Below are positions 22,848 to 28,416 of a stretch of DNA of 46,060 bases, one piece after another. Both the position numbers and the translations under genes were made by a program. The notes beneath the pieces were generated by a model. The model searched no databases. It had not been told where the DNA came from and saw only the letters and a list, made by a program, of their open reading frames with translations. The stretch comes from Escherichia phage EC147. How positions within the stretch are numbered: position 1 is the stretch's first letter; every line of letters begins with the position of its first letter. The DNA lies in the sequence record ON185589.1. One strand, given 5' to 3'.

Positions 22848-23135
22848 ATGGAAAACAAACAAGTGTCAAAGGTAGCAGTTCATATCAACAATTTTGCAAC
22901 TGGCATGGCTATGTTGCTTCGTGACTTTGTAGAGCCACTTGATCCAACAGCAGGCGAAGAAGAAATGGAGTACATCAGAAAAGTAATAGATGCAGTCGAT
23001 AACGTCGTGCTCATTGCGACAATGAGTGAAGACAACGAGGAAGCAATCAAGGCGGTAAAAGAAAGTTCTGATCGCATGATGGAAAATCTTATTAAATTAC
23101 ACACTAAAGAAGAAACAAAACACCAACAGCAATAA
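22848..23135 (+). CDS. hypothetical acidic protein
   Basis: 95 aa, RBS AAGGA; about 19 acidic vs 11 basic residues; between exonuclease and Erf. Confidence 0.5.
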   Translation: MENKQVSKVAVHINNFATGMAMLLRDFVEPLDPTAGEEEMEYIRKVIDAVDNVVLIATMSEDNEEAIKAVKESSDRMMENLIKLHTKEETKHQQQ

Positions 23136-23872: not shown

Positions 23873-24325
23873 ATGCATATTATTACTGGTGAGATCCGAA
23901 AAGAGCCGCGAGTAAAGCAAATGCCTAACGGCAGCACACTTTATGTGGTTGAACTTTCAGAGCGATACAAAGATAAAGATGGAAACTGGCAATATACAAA
24001 CTACAGTTTCTTTTTTAATGCTAAAACAGAAGGTCTTAAGGGTTGGTATGATGAGGCATTCCAGGTTGGCAAGGTTATTTCTGTATCTTGCGACACGCTG
24101 CGCATTGAAACGCGCGAATATAACGGAAAGATGTATTCAAGTTTAATTCCTGGTGGATTTGCAAACCTGCTATTTAGCCAGCGCGGTGAAAGCCAGCAAC
24201 AATATCAGCAGCGCACGCAAGGAGGATGGGGGCAGCCACAACAACAGAATCAACCGCAACAACCGCAACAGCCAAGACAAAGCAATCAACCTCCTATGGA
24301 CTTTGACGACGACATTCCTTTCTGA
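23873..24325 (+). CDS. ssb: single-stranded DNA-binding protein
   Basis: 150 aa; OB-fold N-terminus, Gln/Pro-rich linker, canonical acidic tail DFDDDIPF. Confidence 0.95.
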   Translation: MHIITGEIRKEPRVKQMPNGSTLYVVELSERYKDKDGNWQYTNYSFFFNAKTEGLKGWYDEAFQVGKVISVSCDTLRIETREYNGKMYSSLIPGGFANLLFSQRGESQQQYQQRTQGGWGQPQQQNQPQQPQQPRQSNQPPMDFDDDIPF

Positions 24326-24332
24326 TCAACAA

Positions 24333-24355
24333 AGGGGCATTACGCCCCTTTTTCA
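24333..24355. terminator. bidirectional terminator between ssb and minus-strand module
   Basis: AGGGGC-ATTAC-GCCCCT with flanking T/A runs. Confidence 0.6.
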
Positions 24356-24597
24356 CTTTCAGCCATCCCAAGCACGGCAATAACCTTAACAGCAATTCGC
24401 TTTGCAAGTTCAGTTTGATGAGCATTAAGTTTTCCAGTGGTCATTATTGACAACATTCCGCTCATACTACCTAGACCGTTAAAATCTGACATTGCAGATT
24501 TCATTATTGATATTGGTGAATGACCATCATCAGATATTGTGTGCGCTCTCTCTGACAGGTCTTTAACTACCTGATCAATTCCTTCACTTTTCGTCAT
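24340..24597 (-). CDS. hypothetical protein
   Basis: 85 aa, RBS AAGGA; Ser/Met/Gly-rich; last gene of the minus-strand module. Confidence 0.45.
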   Translation of the reverse strand: MTKSEGIDQVVKDLSERAHTISDDGHSPISIMKSAMSDFNGLGSMSGMLSIMTTGKLNAHQTELAKRIAVKVIAVLGMAESEKGA

Positions 24598-25075
24598 TTG
24601 CTTTTCCTTCAGGCGTTGATTTCTGTTCTGGCATTACAGGCCACGGGCTAATTGATTCCCTTTCTGCTACTGGCTTTTCAGGTTCAATTCCTAAAAACTT
24701 TCCTACAAACTCACCAACAAAATTTGAACTATCGCTTACATAAACGTGCATCCTGTCGAGATCTGCAACCGTAACGCTATTTGGTGCGATCATAATTCGC
24801 TGTTGGTGAAAACCGATATACATCACATTAGCAGGACGCTCAAGAGTTCCCATATTTGGCGCAATTACGCCCATTATCCAACAATAATGAATGTTGCCAT
24901 CAAGCGGCTCACATCCAGCGTTAAGCCAGTTTACTTTCTGGTGAGGAAACGCCATTGATGAATCAGTAGCATCACGCCGTAACGACCATTTAACGCCGCC
25001 AATCTCAATGATTTGTTTCGGCCTCATCCCGTTGAATTGAGTCACGCCAGCGCCATTTTGATTAATGTTTTGCAT
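24584..25075 (-). CDS. hypothetical protein
   Basis: 163 aa; RBS AAAGG; overlaps downstream ORF by 14 nt. Confidence 0.5.
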   Translation of the reverse strand: MQNINQNGAGVTQFNGMRPKQIIEIGGVKWSLRRDATDSSMAFPHQKVNWLNAGCEPLDGNIHYCWIMGVIAPNMGTLERPANVMYIGFHQQRIMIAPNSVTVADLDRMHVYVSDSSNFVGEFVGKFLGIEPEKPVAERESISPWPVMPEQKSTPEGKANDEK

Positions 25076-25089
25076 ATCGGTTAACCTTT

Positions 25090-25413
25090 TTACATTGATT
25101 TCATTTTACGCAATGCGCAGATACAAGCGGCAGCAAGATCGGTTAATTCTTTCTCAATGCCATGATGCGAGCCGTCTGCCTTTTCGGTCATTAGCTCTTT
25201 GTATTCCATTTCTACAATCGACATTAAGCCGCCTGGCTTGTCAATGTGCGCGTCCCAGGTTTTAGGATAGTGCTTAGTTCTTTCAATAACACTTCCCATA
25301 ACTGAATCATGTTCATGATCTCGATCATAATCTCCATCATGATCCTTTCCTCCAATTACTACTCGCGGCAAATGCACGCGCGGTAAATGATAGCCAGCGA
25401 CACGAATTTTCAT
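25090..25413 (-). CDS. hypothetical His/Asp-rich protein
   Basis: 107 aa; RBS AAGGGG; stretch HDGDYDRDHEHD suggests metal binding. Confidence 0.5.
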   Translation of the reverse strand: MKIRVAGYHLPRVHLPRVVIGGKDHDGDYDRDHEHDSVMGSVIERTKHYPKTWDAHIDKPGGLMSIVEMEYKELMTEKADGSHHGIEKELTDLAAACICALRKMKSM

Positions 25414-25429
25414 GAGTATATCCCCTTAT

Positions 25430-25451
25430 AAAAAAGCGCCCCGAAAGGCGC
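25430..25451 (-). terminator. minus-strand terminator after the Gly-rich protein gene
   Basis: minus-strand hairpin AGCGCC-TTTCGG-GGCGCT followed by a U-run. Confidence 0.55.
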
Positions 25452-25459
25452 TTGATTTA

Positions 25460-26155
25460 TTAGCAACCGCAGCAGCCAGTCGGCGGAGTCGCCGGAGTAG
25501 GCAACTTGAAGTTTACCAGTTGCTCGACTTGGTTGATTTTGCAATTCAGTGCGGCGGTCTGGTTTGCCTGAGAAAGAGCAAAACGAGCCTCCTGCAACTG
25601 AGCTTTCATATCGCAAATCAGAACAGCCTGAGAATCAGCGAACTGTTGACGAATCAGATCTCGCGTTGCATTGCCTTGTCGCTCAATATTCAGGTTTGTA
25701 TCACAGCAACATCTCTCCGCTGCAATCTGTGCCTGATAGGAACGCTCAAGAGCATTAACATCGGCAGCATTAATCGCAGCAACTGTATGGTTAGTACCGC
25801 TAACAATCGCGGTATTCAGTCCGGCGAAACCTTGCACCGATGCAAGCAGGTTTTGCGTATTCTGGCTGGTAATGCCGTTAAAGGTTGACGCGGCGGAGCG
25901 CTCAACGGCAAGGTTTGTGGAGTTTTGACCTTGCAGAGTTTGCAGCCCCAGGTTGTTTACTCCTGTCTGGATGTTATTAATACCATCAAGAACAGCGTTA
26001 GCACCGACAGCACCATCACCACCATAACCACCACGACCATTAAAGCCGTTACCAAACCATGACCCAATCAGGCCACCAACAGCACCGCCAAGACCAGCCG
26101 CGCCAGCTTCGCCACCAAAACCACCACCAGTAGGGAGTAAAGTCATATCTGACAT
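25460..26155 (-). CDS. glycine-rich protein with C-terminal Cys cluster (possible fiber/structural protein)
   Basis: ATG at 26155 after GAGGA (ORF track extends to 26203); 231 aa; N-terminal GGGFGGEAGAAGLGG..GRGGYGGDG; internal CCC; ends PTGCCGC; terminators on both sides. Confidence 0.6.
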   Translation of the reverse strand: MSDMTLLPTGGGFGGEAGAAGLGGAVGGLIGSWFGNGFNGRGGYGGDGAVGANAVLDGINNIQTGVNNLGLQTLQGQNSTNLAVERSAASTFNGITSQNTQNLLASVQGFAGLNTAIVSGTNHTVAAINAADVNALERSYQAQIAAERCCCDTNLNIERQGNATRDLIRQQFADSQAVLICDMKAQLQEARFALSQANQTAALNCKINQVEQLVNFKLPTPATPPTGCCGC

Positions 26156-26291
26156 AGTAAATTCCTCTTTGACGTTAAAAAAATTAAAAAAAGTTTGCAA
26201 CATTTATGTTACGACAAAGAGTATGCGCCCAATTACCAGGAATAGATATAAAATGTTTGTAAGCGATATGTCAGCAAATGGCATAAAGACG

Positions 26292-26317
26292 AAAAAAGGC
26301 GCAGCCGTAGCCGCGCC
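26292..26317 (-). terminator. minus-strand terminator
   Basis: minus-strand hairpin AGGCGC..GCGCCT followed by TTTTTT. Confidence 0.55.
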
Positions 26318-26333
26318 TTGTGATTATTTTTTG

Positions 26334-26855
26334 TTAACTTTCCAGCGTTGTTGGCTTGTCGAGTAACGCCGCCACCGCCTCTTTGAGATCTGCAATTTCA
26401 GATTTAAGTGTTTCGATCTCCTCTTGTTGCTTGTCAACTTTTGCCTTTTGCTCCTTGATTGCGTTAGTGTCTGCTTTAACCTGATTAGCCAGATCTTGCA
26501 ACTGTTTTAGGTCAAAGTTTTTGAAAAATTCAATAGCTTCCTCGATCTGAGTTTCTTTGCTTTGATAGTAACGCAGAGTTTCCGCAACATCTTGCGCAAG
26601 GCCGTCAACCGTGATTGAGTCATGCAGCAAAATAATGTAATTGCTTCGCCCAATTTCAGCGCCTCCAGTTGTGATGGCGCGGATTTGTGTATCGCTGATA
26701 ACTTCACTGATCACAGCCGCTTGAAATGGCGCATCAATGAAAAAGATTGTTGCACCAGGGCGAATGAGCGTTAGTTGCTCTCGCCATTTCGTGTCGTATC
26801 CAGTAATATAACCTTGAGCGTCCATTGACGCTTGTCCGGTTCTGTAAATTGCCAT
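26334..26855 (-). CDS. hypothetical coiled-coil protein (possible fiber/structural protein)
   Basis: ATG at 26855 after GGGAG; upstream part of ORF track frame lies inside a terminator; 173 aa; C-terminal third predicted coiled-coil. Confidence 0.55.
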
Positions 26856-26910
26856 GCGTTTTCTCCCATGTTGCATGTTAATGTCAATGCAGATAATAGC
26901 ATTTGCTAAG

Positions 26911-26938
26911 GCAAAAAAAAACCCCGCAATGCGGGGTA
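26911..26938 (-). terminator. minus-strand terminator after primase gene
   Basis: minus-strand CCCCGC-ATT-GCGGGG followed by a 9-U run. Confidence 0.7.
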
Positions 26939-26954
26939 AAAGTAGCAGTGACAT

Positions 26955-27887
26955 TTAGAGAATAGATTCAGGTTTGAAAACCTTCCTCTCTATCCCTTGT
27001 CTGTAATTATCATTAATCGGCATCATAATTTCAAGTCCTCTTTCCTCGGCAGCAATGATCGCGTCACGATCTGTGCTCTTACAGACAACTCGCATTCTTC
27101 TGTTGCCTTTATACCTGTAAGCCACAATCTCAATGTTAGTTGCATCAAAACAGGCCCAAACCTCCTGACCAGTTGCAAGATGAATATGTTGCGCATCAAT
27201 CCAGTCAACGCAAAGATAGATAGTCTTATCTGTACTTCCGGTTCTAACAATCGACCCTCGCGTGTAGTCCTTTGCTAGAAAAGACTGTTTACCTTCTTCA
27301 TCAATGAAAAGCACATTGCACATTTCATCATCAATATCATCTGAATGCACAAGGTAACATGATAACGCGTGAATGTATCGACCATCTTTTACGCCGCAAT
27401 CATAATGACCATCTTCAGGCGGGCATATTCCTTCATATGTGCTTAACGGCGTGCGATCAAATTTTAGTGTTTTTGACATAACGCGCTCGCAGCATTCATG
27501 GCTTGCCTGTTTCCCAAACGAATAACCAGAATCACGAGATACTCGCTTATTTGCCTTGATTCTATAGCCCTGCGGAACTTTTCCAAGAAAGCGGCCCAAA
27601 ATATTGATCACTTCGCTGTAAGGTTCTCCGGTTAGCTTCATGATCCAACCTATTCCAGTATCGTTTCCGCACACGTTGCAGATCGCACCGCCATCGCCTT
27701 TTTTATCTCCAAGTTTATCCGTCCATCTAAAGCGATCCTTTCCGCCGCAGTGGGGGCAAGATTGATGCTTGCCGTTAAAAACTTCATTTGGAAGACCGCA
27801 AATACTTTGTAGCGCCTCACGCCATAATCCCTGCATATATGGGAGAACATCTTCCTTTTGATAAACCATAAAGTTTTCGTTGTTCAT
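26955..27887 (-). CDS. DNA primase (zinc-ribbon + Toprim-like)
   Basis: ATG at 27887 after GAGGTG; zinc ribbon CPHCGGKDRFRW..CNVCG typical of phage primase Zn-binding domains; 310 aa. Confidence 0.65.
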   Translation of the reverse strand: MNNENFMVYQKEDVLPYMQGLWREALQSICGLPNEVFNGKHQSCPHCGGKDRFRWTDKLGDKKGDGGAICNVCGNDTGIGWIMKLTGEPYSEVINILGRFLGKVPQGYRIKANKRVSRDSGYSFGKQASHECCERVMSKTLKFDRTPLSTYEGICPPEDGHYDCGVKDGRYIHALSCYLVHSDDIDDEMCNVLFIDEEGKQSFLAKDYTRGSIVRTGSTDKTIYLCVDWIDAQHIHLATGQEVWACFDATNIEIVAYRYKGNRRMRVVCKSTDRDAIIAAEERGLEIMMPINDNYRQGIERKVFKPESIL

Positions 27888-27942
27888 ATGCACCTCAAAC
27901 AAAAAAGCCTGACAGATGATAACATCATGCCAGGCATTGTTT

Positions 27943-28416
27943 TTAGCAATTAGTGCTTTCAGGTTTATACAGGAATCCGCCAGGTTCATAATCTGACATT
28001 CTTACCACTCGCAACATTTCACGCTTATCACATCTCTTTGTGAGCGGTTTTCCATTGGAATCAAATCGCAGATCTGGACGGCAGAATGAAGCGCGATAGC
28101 CTTGACAGTCATACTTTTTGTAATCGTTATGCACCTTTTGAGCACCAGCGGCTGAAATCATACCACGAACGCGCCACTGATTTACAGTTTGCTGGCTAAC
28201 GTTAAGACGTTTTGCCATTGCTGACACACTTCCGTAATACTCAATAAGGATTTCAAGTCGCGCTTTTAGTCCGGCTCGCACTTCATCTTTTAAAACATAG
28301 TATCCTGTAGGGCGCTTGCGCTTCTTCTTATCCTTGCCTCGTCTTGTTCCGTTATTGCCATTAATTGTGCGCTTGTCAATCTTGCCTGTTGATGCTGCAA
28401 TTCGTTGCTCTTTCAT
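27943..28416 (-). CDS. putative HTH DNA-binding regulator
   Basis: 157 aa; basic N-terminus (KDKKKRKRP) and helix-turn-helix-like VSAMAKRLNVSQQTVNQWRVRG; diverges from the helicase promoter. Confidence 0.55.
   Translation of the reverse strand: MKEQRIAASTGKIDKRTINGNNGTRRGKDKKKRKRPTGYYVLKDEVRAGLKARLEILIEYYGSVSAMAKRLNVSQQTVNQWRVRGMISAAGAQKVHNDYKKYDCQGYRASFCRPDLRFDSNGKPLTKRCDKREMLRVVRMSDYEPGGFLYKPESTNC

Follow-up and report, generated by a model that had tools for sequence, protein, structure and literature searches.

A probable lateral tail fibre stub and an adjoining mobile gene cassette between ssb and primase of Escherichia phage EC147

In this work we analysed a block of five minus-strand open reading frames (ORFs), positions 24340–26855, of Escherichia phage EC147, a Hanrivervirus (Drexlerviridae) obtained from Copenhagen wastewater after overnight enrichment on E. 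coli ECOR4. The window is the whole genome, 46,060 bp. The block is flanked by ssb (23873–24325, plus strand) and by the primase gene (26955–27989, minus strand), and all five genes lie where a first-pass annotation, made from the letters alone, had placed them. This annotation had proposed that they might encode side tail fibres located away from the tail module. Our analysis shows that the block is made of two parts with different histories. The gene next to primase (26334–26855) is, by homology, a lateral tail fibre (LTF) gene of the Drexlerviridae that keeps the conserved N-terminal attachment domain, and it is very likely a stub, cut by two in-frame deletions from about 680–740 amino acids (aa) to 173 aa. 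The four other genes (24340–26155) are inherited together as a mobile and dispensable unit that was found in phage genomes only; with good probability they form an accessory operon of moron type that is autonomous, is not part of the fibre and merely adjoins the fibre gene. The side-fibre proposal therefore holds for 26334–26855, which has the LTF anchor domain though only as a stub, and fails for the other four genes, which match no fibre family and occur in contexts unrelated to tails; the alternative offered in the first pass, a secreted or host-directed function of another kind, may apply to them. Our best overall explanation, to which we give somewhat better than even credence, is a fibre stub next to a separate mobile accessory operon that would act in the infected cell.

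The 173-aa product of 26334–26855 matches tail-fibre PHROGs with E values of 1e-58 to 1e-31 (phrog_5481, E 1e-58; phrog_24159, E 1e-55). Its residues 1–149 correspond to the N-terminus of the Klebsiella phage depolymerases 7vyv and 7lzj (phmmer E 3e-51, about 1e-50), and its residues 1–127 (26475–26855), the conserved virion-anchor domain, are identical in amino acids to residues 1–127 of the haarsle LTF, with a nonsynonymous rate (dN) of 0 against synonymous rates (dS) of 0.16–0.25 over these 127 codons (dS 0.25 against haarsle). The BASEL authors found the N-terminal end to be the sole part common across Drexlerviridae LTFs, and place the LTF locus of this family between recombination and primase/helicase genes. 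The same position, between ssb and primase and on the strand opposite the tail module, is seen in haarsle, JakobBernoulli, aalborv and T1, and the LTF homologue of SH6, ORF54, was detected in virions with liquid chromatography coupled to tandem mass spectrometry (17 peptides, 42% coverage). The EC147 gene thus shares its minus-strand locus and anchor domain with the LTFs of T1 (fibB/gp26), SH6 (ORF54) and the BASEL phages Bas01–13 and with 7lzj/7vyv. T1-like phages are already known to encode the LTF at a distance from their tail genes; new here are the fibre-less natural variant and the cassette.

The EC147 gene differs from these relatives in its length. Drexlerviridae LTFs have about 560–740 aa (683 in haarsle, 741 in JakobBernoulli), whereas the EC147 product lacks the shaft, the receptor-binding/enzymatic part and the S74 chaperone; the aalborv LTF has 208 aa. 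EC147 retains residues 1–127 and the last ~39 residues of a haarsle-type protein, about 510–570 residues (the shaft and the receptor-binding/enzymatic part) being absent in comparison with haarsle and JakobBernoulli. Over 24000–27100 the DNA has 92–95% identity with Hanriverviruses such as haarsle (95% in the flanks of the gap), vojen, egaa and grams, and these matches all come in two pieces, which span ~4.6 kb in the relative against 3.1 kb in EC147; in the LTF gene the match to haarsle is interrupted at 26466/26474 and ~1.5 kb is absent. The Peptidase_S74 domain (PF13884), a self-cleaving intramolecular chaperone at residues 552–612 of the haarsle LTF (E 1e-10), was found by Pfam search neither in the EC147 stub nor in the aalborv LTF; the ~39 aa that lie C-terminal of the domain survive. 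Comparison with JakobBernoulli and aalborv resolved two deletion junctions in the segment coding for residues 128–173 and the stop codon (26334–26474), both in short direct repeats of only ~20–33 nt. At the first, ADTNAIKEQ, from the N-terminal repeats, is joined to VNAFKEQKAKV near the C-terminus through the near-repeat TAACGCAaTCAAgGAGCAAA; this junction is common to aalborv, which was sequenced independently. The second is an extra loss of 105 nt, where NQVK followed by GD stands against NQIK followed by AD. Both deletions are in frame because the repeats code for the same peptide. The long coiled coil noticed in the first pass at the end of the protein corresponds to the last part of the ancestral C-terminal coiled coil: about 50 aa are heptad-like, with only weak coiled-coil-type Pfam matches.

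It is very improbable that the short gene is an assembly artefact and that the EC147 LTF is really full-length. The genome does come from a de novo assembly of short reads, and the junctions do lie inside repeated sequence coding for a coiled coil; however, the repeats are far shorter than the 250-nt reads, coverage is ~3000x, the main junction recurs in aalborv, and the ORF remains open up to the ancestral stop codon.

Loss of side fibres is known from laboratory phages, such as lambda PaPa with its stf frameshift and fibre-less T5 mutants. EC147 resembles them in that a fibre for surface glycans or O-antigen is lost while the phage is viable on rough hosts; it differs in that the loss is an in-frame deletion between direct repeats that leaves a stub, and in that EC147 and aalborv are fresh wastewater isolates, not old laboratory stocks. 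Both come from hosts free of O-antigen: aalborv was isolated on rough K-12, and ECOR4, the enrichment host of EC147, is reported to be without O-antigen, which would make the loss tolerable. Side fibres are probably dispensable for EC147 on ECOR4, in line with the BASEL proposal that Drexlerviridae LTFs bind O-antigen and are unneeded on rough hosts. Most likely EC147 would make no working side fibres and would adsorb by its central tail-tip receptor-binding protein alone, and the simplest reading of the gene is that of a fibre-less phage keeping an anchor-plus-coiled-coil plug. Like aalborv, EC147 is thus predicted to be a natural side-fibre-less Hanrivervirus with a host range narrowed to strains without a protective O-antigen, a point relevant for biocontrol, and its retained anchor domain would offer a clean scaffold for fibre grafting.

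The four other genes are, in the order of transcription, gene 1 (25460–26155; 231 aa, glycine-rich with a CCC motif; phrog_9288, E 2e-122), gene 2 (25090–25413; 107 aa, His/Asp-rich in one tract and MazG-like in its helical core; phrog_9157), gene 3 (24584–25075; 163 aa, predicted beta-rich; phrog_8329) and gene 4 (24340–24597; 85 aa, predicted helical; phrog_7239, E 8e-44), which overlaps gene 3 by 14 nt. The four PHROGs are all of unknown function. A scan of IMG/VR with an alignment of gene 1 gave 38 loci, 34 of them with a full relative, and in 32 of these 34 the four genes stand in the same order and spacing; one locus is without gene 3 and one is rearranged. Gene 4 is colinear with genes 1–3 in all full loci. 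The four-gene layout is also found in Edwardsiella phage eiAU and Yersinia phage vB_YenM_12, with 25–47% identity. The surroundings vary. The cassette adjoins an LTF gene in Drexlerviridae, in Queuovirinae (Seuratvirus and Nonagvirus) and in eiAU, and the gene for the large terminase (TerL) in Sasha-like phages; elsewhere it lies beside head decoration and capsid genes (an HNH homing endonuclease intervening in one locus), behind the gene for an N4-type virion RNA polymerase, near lysis genes, or alone, and in vB_YenM_12 it is found with early genes on the opposite strand. Its carriers belong to several siphovirus lineages and also include an N4-like podovirus and one phage that is a myovirus by name. 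A constant linkage of gene 1 to tail-fibre genes was looked for across these phages and not found, as the neighbours vary. Two pattern-based scans of bacterial and archaeal genomes (one for each of 185,579 species) gave no relative of the cassette, and the matches seen in bacterial assemblies are on contigs of phage-genome size. Searches of IMG/VR with two single remote members, P0188 and P0240, gave no matches.

The cassette is also often lost or broken. It was not found in T1 or SH6, and aalborv has lost all of it save residues 15–85 of gene 4. JakobBernoulli gene 1 (locus L002, 7461–8165) has an internal stop codon, the copy in the T5-like phage polluks (L005, 5791–6426) has multiple stops, SuperGirl keeps cassette fragments behind its LTF gene (L049, 3959–4238), and 9NA (L046, 5959–6765) has a remnant after TerL with a truncated gene 3. 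Gene 1 is split in SeppeHuegi and frameshifted in VogelGryff, and in KurtStettler a deletion has fused gene 1, from residue ~16 on, to the chaperone domain of the LTF (members P0409, P0422, P0425 and P0426 make up the KurtStettler/SeppeHuegi/VogelGryff set); a fusion of gene 1 to gene 3 (P0180) is present on 11 contigs. Disrupted gene-1 alleles are carried by at least four BASEL isolates, each of them raised on the same K-12 strain; this may reflect neutral decay or selection against the gene. Where the genes are kept they are constrained: the dN/dS ratio against relatives is 0.05–0.2 for all five genes of the block, indicating purifying selection. Constraint when present, dispensability and horizontal mobility are what one would expect of an accessory operon, and not of a component of the fibre.

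Two further observations concern the way in which the cassette travels. T5-like Epseptimaviruses have decayed remnants directly behind their LTF gene, and 9NA has them behind TerL; this suggests a joint transfer of fibre modules and cassette, followed by erosion of the latter. In addition, genes resembling homing endonucleases directly adjoin the cassette in two unrelated contexts, gp06 of Sasha (L006, 3103–4671; DUF723/treble-clef) and a gene of the HNH family phrog_559 (L024, 4956–6380); such neighbours may be a vehicle for its mobility. The literature open to search yielded no account of the cassette, and databases call its proteins hypothetical. The BASEL labels ‘putative sugar-binding protein’ and ‘lateral tail fiber chaperone’ were rejected, being attached to a fragment and to the deletion fusion, respectively.

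Morons are autonomous promoter–gene–terminator insertions in the late operons of phages such as lambda and HK97. Like them, the EC147 cassette is bounded by terminators (26319–26296 upstream and 24351–24331 downstream, with an internal one at 25453–25434), dispensable, variably placed and indifferent to the orientation of its neighbours. It departs from the classical type in having four genes, internal attenuation, a conserved structured leader and only weak candidate promoters, and in being found in virulent phages only.

The hairpins that bound these genes confirm the terminators foreseen around 25430–51, 26292–317 and 26911–38 in the first pass. The three minus-strand sites have stems with 5–7 G–C pairs followed by T-runs: 26937–26921, after primase and upstream of the LTF stub (7-bp stem, 6 G–C pairs, then T9); 26319–26296, a strong terminator-like hairpin between the stub and the cassette (10-bp stem, 7 G–C pairs, then T6); and 25453–25434, a GC-rich hairpin with a T-run between genes 1 and 2, which is probably a leaky terminator. 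A fourth hairpin (24331–24351) is common to the convergent ends of ssb and of the cassette; it scored as a plus-strand terminator, with a poor T-run in the minus-strand reading. Terminator-like sites number 10 in the scanned region against 6.0±2.3 in shuffled sequences. The hairpin between genes 1 and 2 (AGCGCC..GGCGCT) is kept in nearly all loci, with a T-run of 3 to 6 that is often short, the ribosome-binding site of gene 2 follows it by at most about 20 nt, and in the Sasha record it carries the annotation of a terminator; it resembles either a terminator that attenuates or an element that stabilizes the mRNA. Genes 2–4 are tightly packed or overlapping. This layout, a hairpin after gene 1 and then packed genes, predicts more gene-1 product than helper product, and the strong terminator upstream of gene 1 implies that transcription of the cassette depends on a promoter of its own or on antitermination.

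The leader of gene 1 is structured. A hairpin at 26197–26212 (GTAACA-TAAA-TGTTGC, with one G·U pair) has counterparts across the family: a stem of at least 5 bp lies between −57 and −36 from the gene-1 ATG in 27 of 29 distinct 5′ untranslated regions (UTRs), against 3.6±1.8 in dinucleotide shuffles. This test counts the occurrence of hairpins against shuffles, the MAFFT alignment of the leaders being out of structural register. The stems vary with compensation between lineages (GTAAC/GTTAC, GTAGC/GCTAC, GTGGC/GCCAC, GCGAAC/GTTCGC and CCACC/GGTGG), and the G·U pair of EC147 favours an RNA structure over a DNA palindrome. A leader stem-loop upstream of gene 1 is also seen in loci L004, L006, L013, L015, L017–L021, L024, L027, L030, L032, L037, L047 and L048. 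In EC147 an outer helix (26165–26221) would in addition cover the Shine–Dalgarno sequence of gene 1, CTCTTTG (26221–26215) pairing with CAAAGAG (26171–26165); minimum free energy and centroid folds concur on it, and its pairs differ by lineage (CTCCTGT/ACAGGAG, CTCTTTGTG/CACAAAGAG and CTATTTA/TAAATAG). Folding z-scores are −1.9 for EC147, −3.5 for Sasha, −2.7 for eiAU and −1.9 for L024. Such sequestration is seen in EC147, Sasha-like phages, eiAU and L024, while other lineages have the inner hairpin only or a different local hairpin over the ribosome-binding site. A search of Rfam with the gene-1 leader returned no family, only terminator-like matches below threshold. From the layout and the leader we infer that gene 1 would be an abundant product whose translation is gated by RNA structure.

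The gene-1 family comprises 186 clusters at 90% identity and 109 at 50%, of similar lengths (nearly all 200–290 aa). The features that the first-pass annotation had singled out are all present: the glycine-rich N-terminal region (GGGFGGEAGAAGLGG..GRGGYGGDG), a CCC within the protein and PTGCCGC at its C-terminus. The CCC does not vary among 32 homologues and hardly does so in remote ones; the other invariant features are the N-terminus MSDMTLLP (almost), a glycine-rich, mildly hydrophobic stretch (AGAAGLGGAVGGLIGSWFGNG), QGFAGLNTAI, TRxL and LCDxK. A long region rich in N, Q, T, S and A is predicted to be helical, and the end of the protein, often rich in Pro and Thr, is closed by GCC or GCCGC. 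Structure prediction, which had been suggested as a check, was of limited use: the AlphaFold2 model is a single long helix (residues 55–215) at low confidence, with a mean predicted local distance difference test (pLDDT) score of 55. The remote-homology search proposed at the same time linked gene 1 to no fibre family and to no other characterized one. In Pfam, NCBIfam and PDB it has no tail-fibre, fibre-assembly, adhesin or bacteriocin match, and so the likeness to bacteriocin translocation domains seen in the first pass found no support there; among PHROGs it matches phrog_9288 and, weakly, a tape-measure family, and its remote members match only phrog_9288 and phrog_16490, both function-unknown. 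Sequence searches of Pfam, NCBIfam, PADLOC and PDB with the four cassette proteins and remote members gave only coiled-coil noise. A resemblance of gene 1 to the HA2 fusion peptide (8uad, E 0.3) was rejected as compositional. By none of these tests, then, would gene 1 or the other three be fibre proteins. JakobBernoulli points, indirectly, in the same direction: it forms robust plaques on a strain with O16 antigen, which its authors suggest the LTF uses, although a stop codon interrupts its gene 1, and this would speak against a role of gene 1 in fibre assembly.

The His/Asp-rich stretch reported for one of the proteins, HDGDYDRDHEHD, is found in the 107-aa product of gene 2. Tracts of this kind recur in the family by composition and not by sequence: they are variable, rich in His, Asp and Glu, and other members carry, for example, HHHHVHHHHH. 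Gene 2 also has the motif E70-x2-E73-x15-E89-x2-D92 (E70-Y-K-E73 ... E89-L-T-D92) on two predicted helices; E70 is invariant, E89 is at least 90% conserved and E73 is Q in some members. The pattern ExxE-(12–28)-ExxD is the metal-binding motif that defines MazG-type enzymes, and the gene-2 motif, with its spacing of 15, fits this definition. The best PDB match of the gene-2 profile is 2p06 (AF_0060), which we take to be a member of the all-alpha NTP pyrophosphatase (MazG) superfamily, at E 0.036; a deeper profile gives 3e-4, a value inflated by the His-tag of the PDB construct. Gene 2 thus shares E-x2-E ... E-x2-D with these enzymes, but adds the His/Asp-rich tract. With moderate confidence we regard gene 2 as a MazG-like NTP pyrophosphatase, the activity being predicted only. 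Gene 3 has invariant H45, C65, H110, D38 and D105 and no recognizable fold, and gene 4 has no relative in PDB or Pfam. Chaperones of the Eag/DUF1795 type in type VI secretion systems (SciW, 6xrb; PA0094, 1tu1) shield glycine-zipper transmembrane segments of effectors. This fold was considered for gene 3 and rejected, as there is no significant structural similarity.

These properties can be assembled into a mechanism, which we put forward as a conjecture. The cassette would be read from a structured 5′ UTR through gene 1, a leaky GC-rich hairpin or terminator and three packed helper genes to a terminator, and it would act inside the infected cell, at the envelope and outside the virion. The gene-1 product would be an oligomeric helical protein whose glycine-zipper-like N-terminus inserts in or perturbs a membrane, the CCC and the terminal cysteine clusters locking the oligomer or binding metal. 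It would be handled, modified or held in check by the helpers, of which one would be an NTP pyrophosphatase of MazG type whose His-rich tail binds metal, one a novel beta protein bearing Cys and His, and one a small protein of helices. Late and conditional roles would fit, such as exclusion of other phages, envelope remodelling or tuning of lysis. An action directed at the envelope is suggested by the glycine-zipper-like N-terminus, by tight control of the kind typical of harmful membrane proteins and by indifference to the type of virion; we nevertheless consider this specific mechanism rather unlikely as it stands. The broader proposal, that the cassette is a new mobile, phage-only system combining an abundant, translationally gated and membrane-active gene 1, a MazG-type enzyme and two proteins of new fold, and that it confers a conditional advantage, such as keeping out competing phages, remodelling the envelope ahead of lysis or counter-defence, is tentative; it would explain both the spread over siphoviruses, N4-like podoviruses and a myovirus and the frequent loss in culture.

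Several observations weigh against this picture of an autonomous operon working at the envelope. The N-terminal stretch of gene 1 is poor as a transmembrane helix (best 19-residue Kyte–Doolittle mean 1.13), and the protein shows no signal peptide or lipobox. Its composition, rich in N, Q, T, S, A and G with few charged residues and clustered cysteines, would suit an extracellular or ejected fibrous protein, and the weak tape-measure PHROG match (E 0.005) points the same way. The Seuratvirus, 9g and P400 papers offer no virion proteome of a cassette-bearing phage, and SH6, for which there is one, does not carry the cassette. A consensus scan found no sigma-70-like promoter in 26156–26295 on the minus strand, and candidates picked manually are weak; as no promoter was found in front of gene 1, transcriptional autonomy of the cassette is only putative. 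Shine–Dalgarno sequestration is not universal, z-scores of single leaders ranging from +0.1 to −3.8, and a protein-binding palindrome in the DNA is an alternative reading of the conserved hairpin. Finally, gene 2 has no MazG match in Pfam, and its assignment to that superfamily rests on the motif and a marginal profile match.

The main rival explanation makes gene 1 a virion component, either a disulfide-locked trimeric fibril (a whisker, a decoration or a distal fibre subunit) or an ejected, tape-measure-type pilot protein whose glycine-rich end enters the host membrane, with the three small proteins as assembly chaperones. The composition of gene 1, its cysteine clusters and the late placement of the cassette would fit such a protein. 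However, the same cassette is carried by phages with unrelated virions (siphovirus lineages, the N4-like podovirus and the phage named as a myovirus), so that a specific docking site on all of them is unlikely. Moreover, the cassette is dispensable (aalborv has deleted it, T1 and SH6 do without it, and several BASEL isolates have it in broken form), JakobBernoulli plates on its O16 strain, by means of the LTF according to its authors, despite the stop in gene 1, and gene 1 has neither a clear heptad register nor a match to a structural family. We regard a virion role as improbable.

Two other readings are possible, with little that specifically supports them. The cassette could be a counter-defence or host-takeover module, in which the MazG-like enzyme destroys a nucleotide signal or alarmone and the other proteins are cofactors or decoys, or gene 1 could be a liability sensed by host defences. 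This would agree with the MazG-type metal-binding motif of gene 2, with strong purifying selection combined with frequent loss, which is typical of conditionally useful accessory genes, with movement across phage families and no relative in the scans of cellular genomes, and with the disrupted gene-1 alleles of the BASEL isolates raised on one K-12 strain. The disruptions could, however, be neutral decay or sequencing errors, the position of the cassette is late/structural and not early, there is no PADLOC or other family match, and gene 1, the conserved and highly expressed centre of the operon, would be left without a role; we hold this reading to be quite improbable. Hardly credible is a microcin- or colicin-like toxin encoded by gene 1, freed at lysis against competing bacteria and served by the helpers in maturation or immunity: Gly/Ala-rich hydrophobic N-terminal regions do resemble class II microcins and colicin translocation domains in composition, a likeness useful as a lead only, and tight translational control would fit a toxic product, but the bacteriocin domains of Pfam, NCBIfam and PDB gave no match, no export or double-glycine processing machinery accompanies the gene, the neighbours being of function-unknown families, and the conserved 160-residue helical part and the CCC have no bacteriocin counterpart.

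An accessory operon acting in the infected cell thus remains the reading that we prefer for the cassette. It unites four families of unknown function in one co-inherited, regulated operon that moves among at least eight Enterobacterales phage lineages and is often inactivated in laboratory isolates. Knowledge of its function would allow hundreds of phage genomes to be annotated and might bring to light a new envelope or exclusion function that acts late, and the leader hairpin with Shine–Dalgarno sequestration would be a small and testable example of how virulent phages control translation.

Purifying selection on all five ORFs of the block shows that they are real genes, and their starts can be refined. 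A mechanical ORF list extends gene 1 to 26203 and the LTF stub to 26954. The ATGs at 26155 and 26855 are, from sequence comparison, better starts, because homologues begin there (PHROG matches start at residues 17 and 34 of the long forms) and because good ribosome-binding sites precede them (AAAGAGGAA and GGGAGAA, respectively). Plus-strand ORFs within the block (e.g. 25412–25888) were rejected, as they lie antisense to conserved genes and themselves lack homologues.

Three minor observations concern neighbouring genes and related records. About 20 GenBank records named ‘Campylobacter phage’ (MG065636, MG065637, MG065643 and others; host C. jejuni, unannotated) are 95–98% identical to the Hanrivervirus region of EC147; their host assignment looks doubtful, and T1-like coliphages present as contaminants may be their origin. 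The primase ORF, 344 aa in its longest form, shares 47 nt (27943–27989) with the upstream gene for a Cro/YdaS-like regulator, the primase family match starts at residue 33, and the JakobBernoulli primase is annotated as 310 aa; the real start is probably an internal ATG. Finally, 22848–23135 (plus strand) is an acidic ORF of 95 aa between recE and erf, the homologues of which in haarsle and aalborv are called ‘tail length tape measure protein’ in RefSeq, a name that looks like a propagated mis-annotation.

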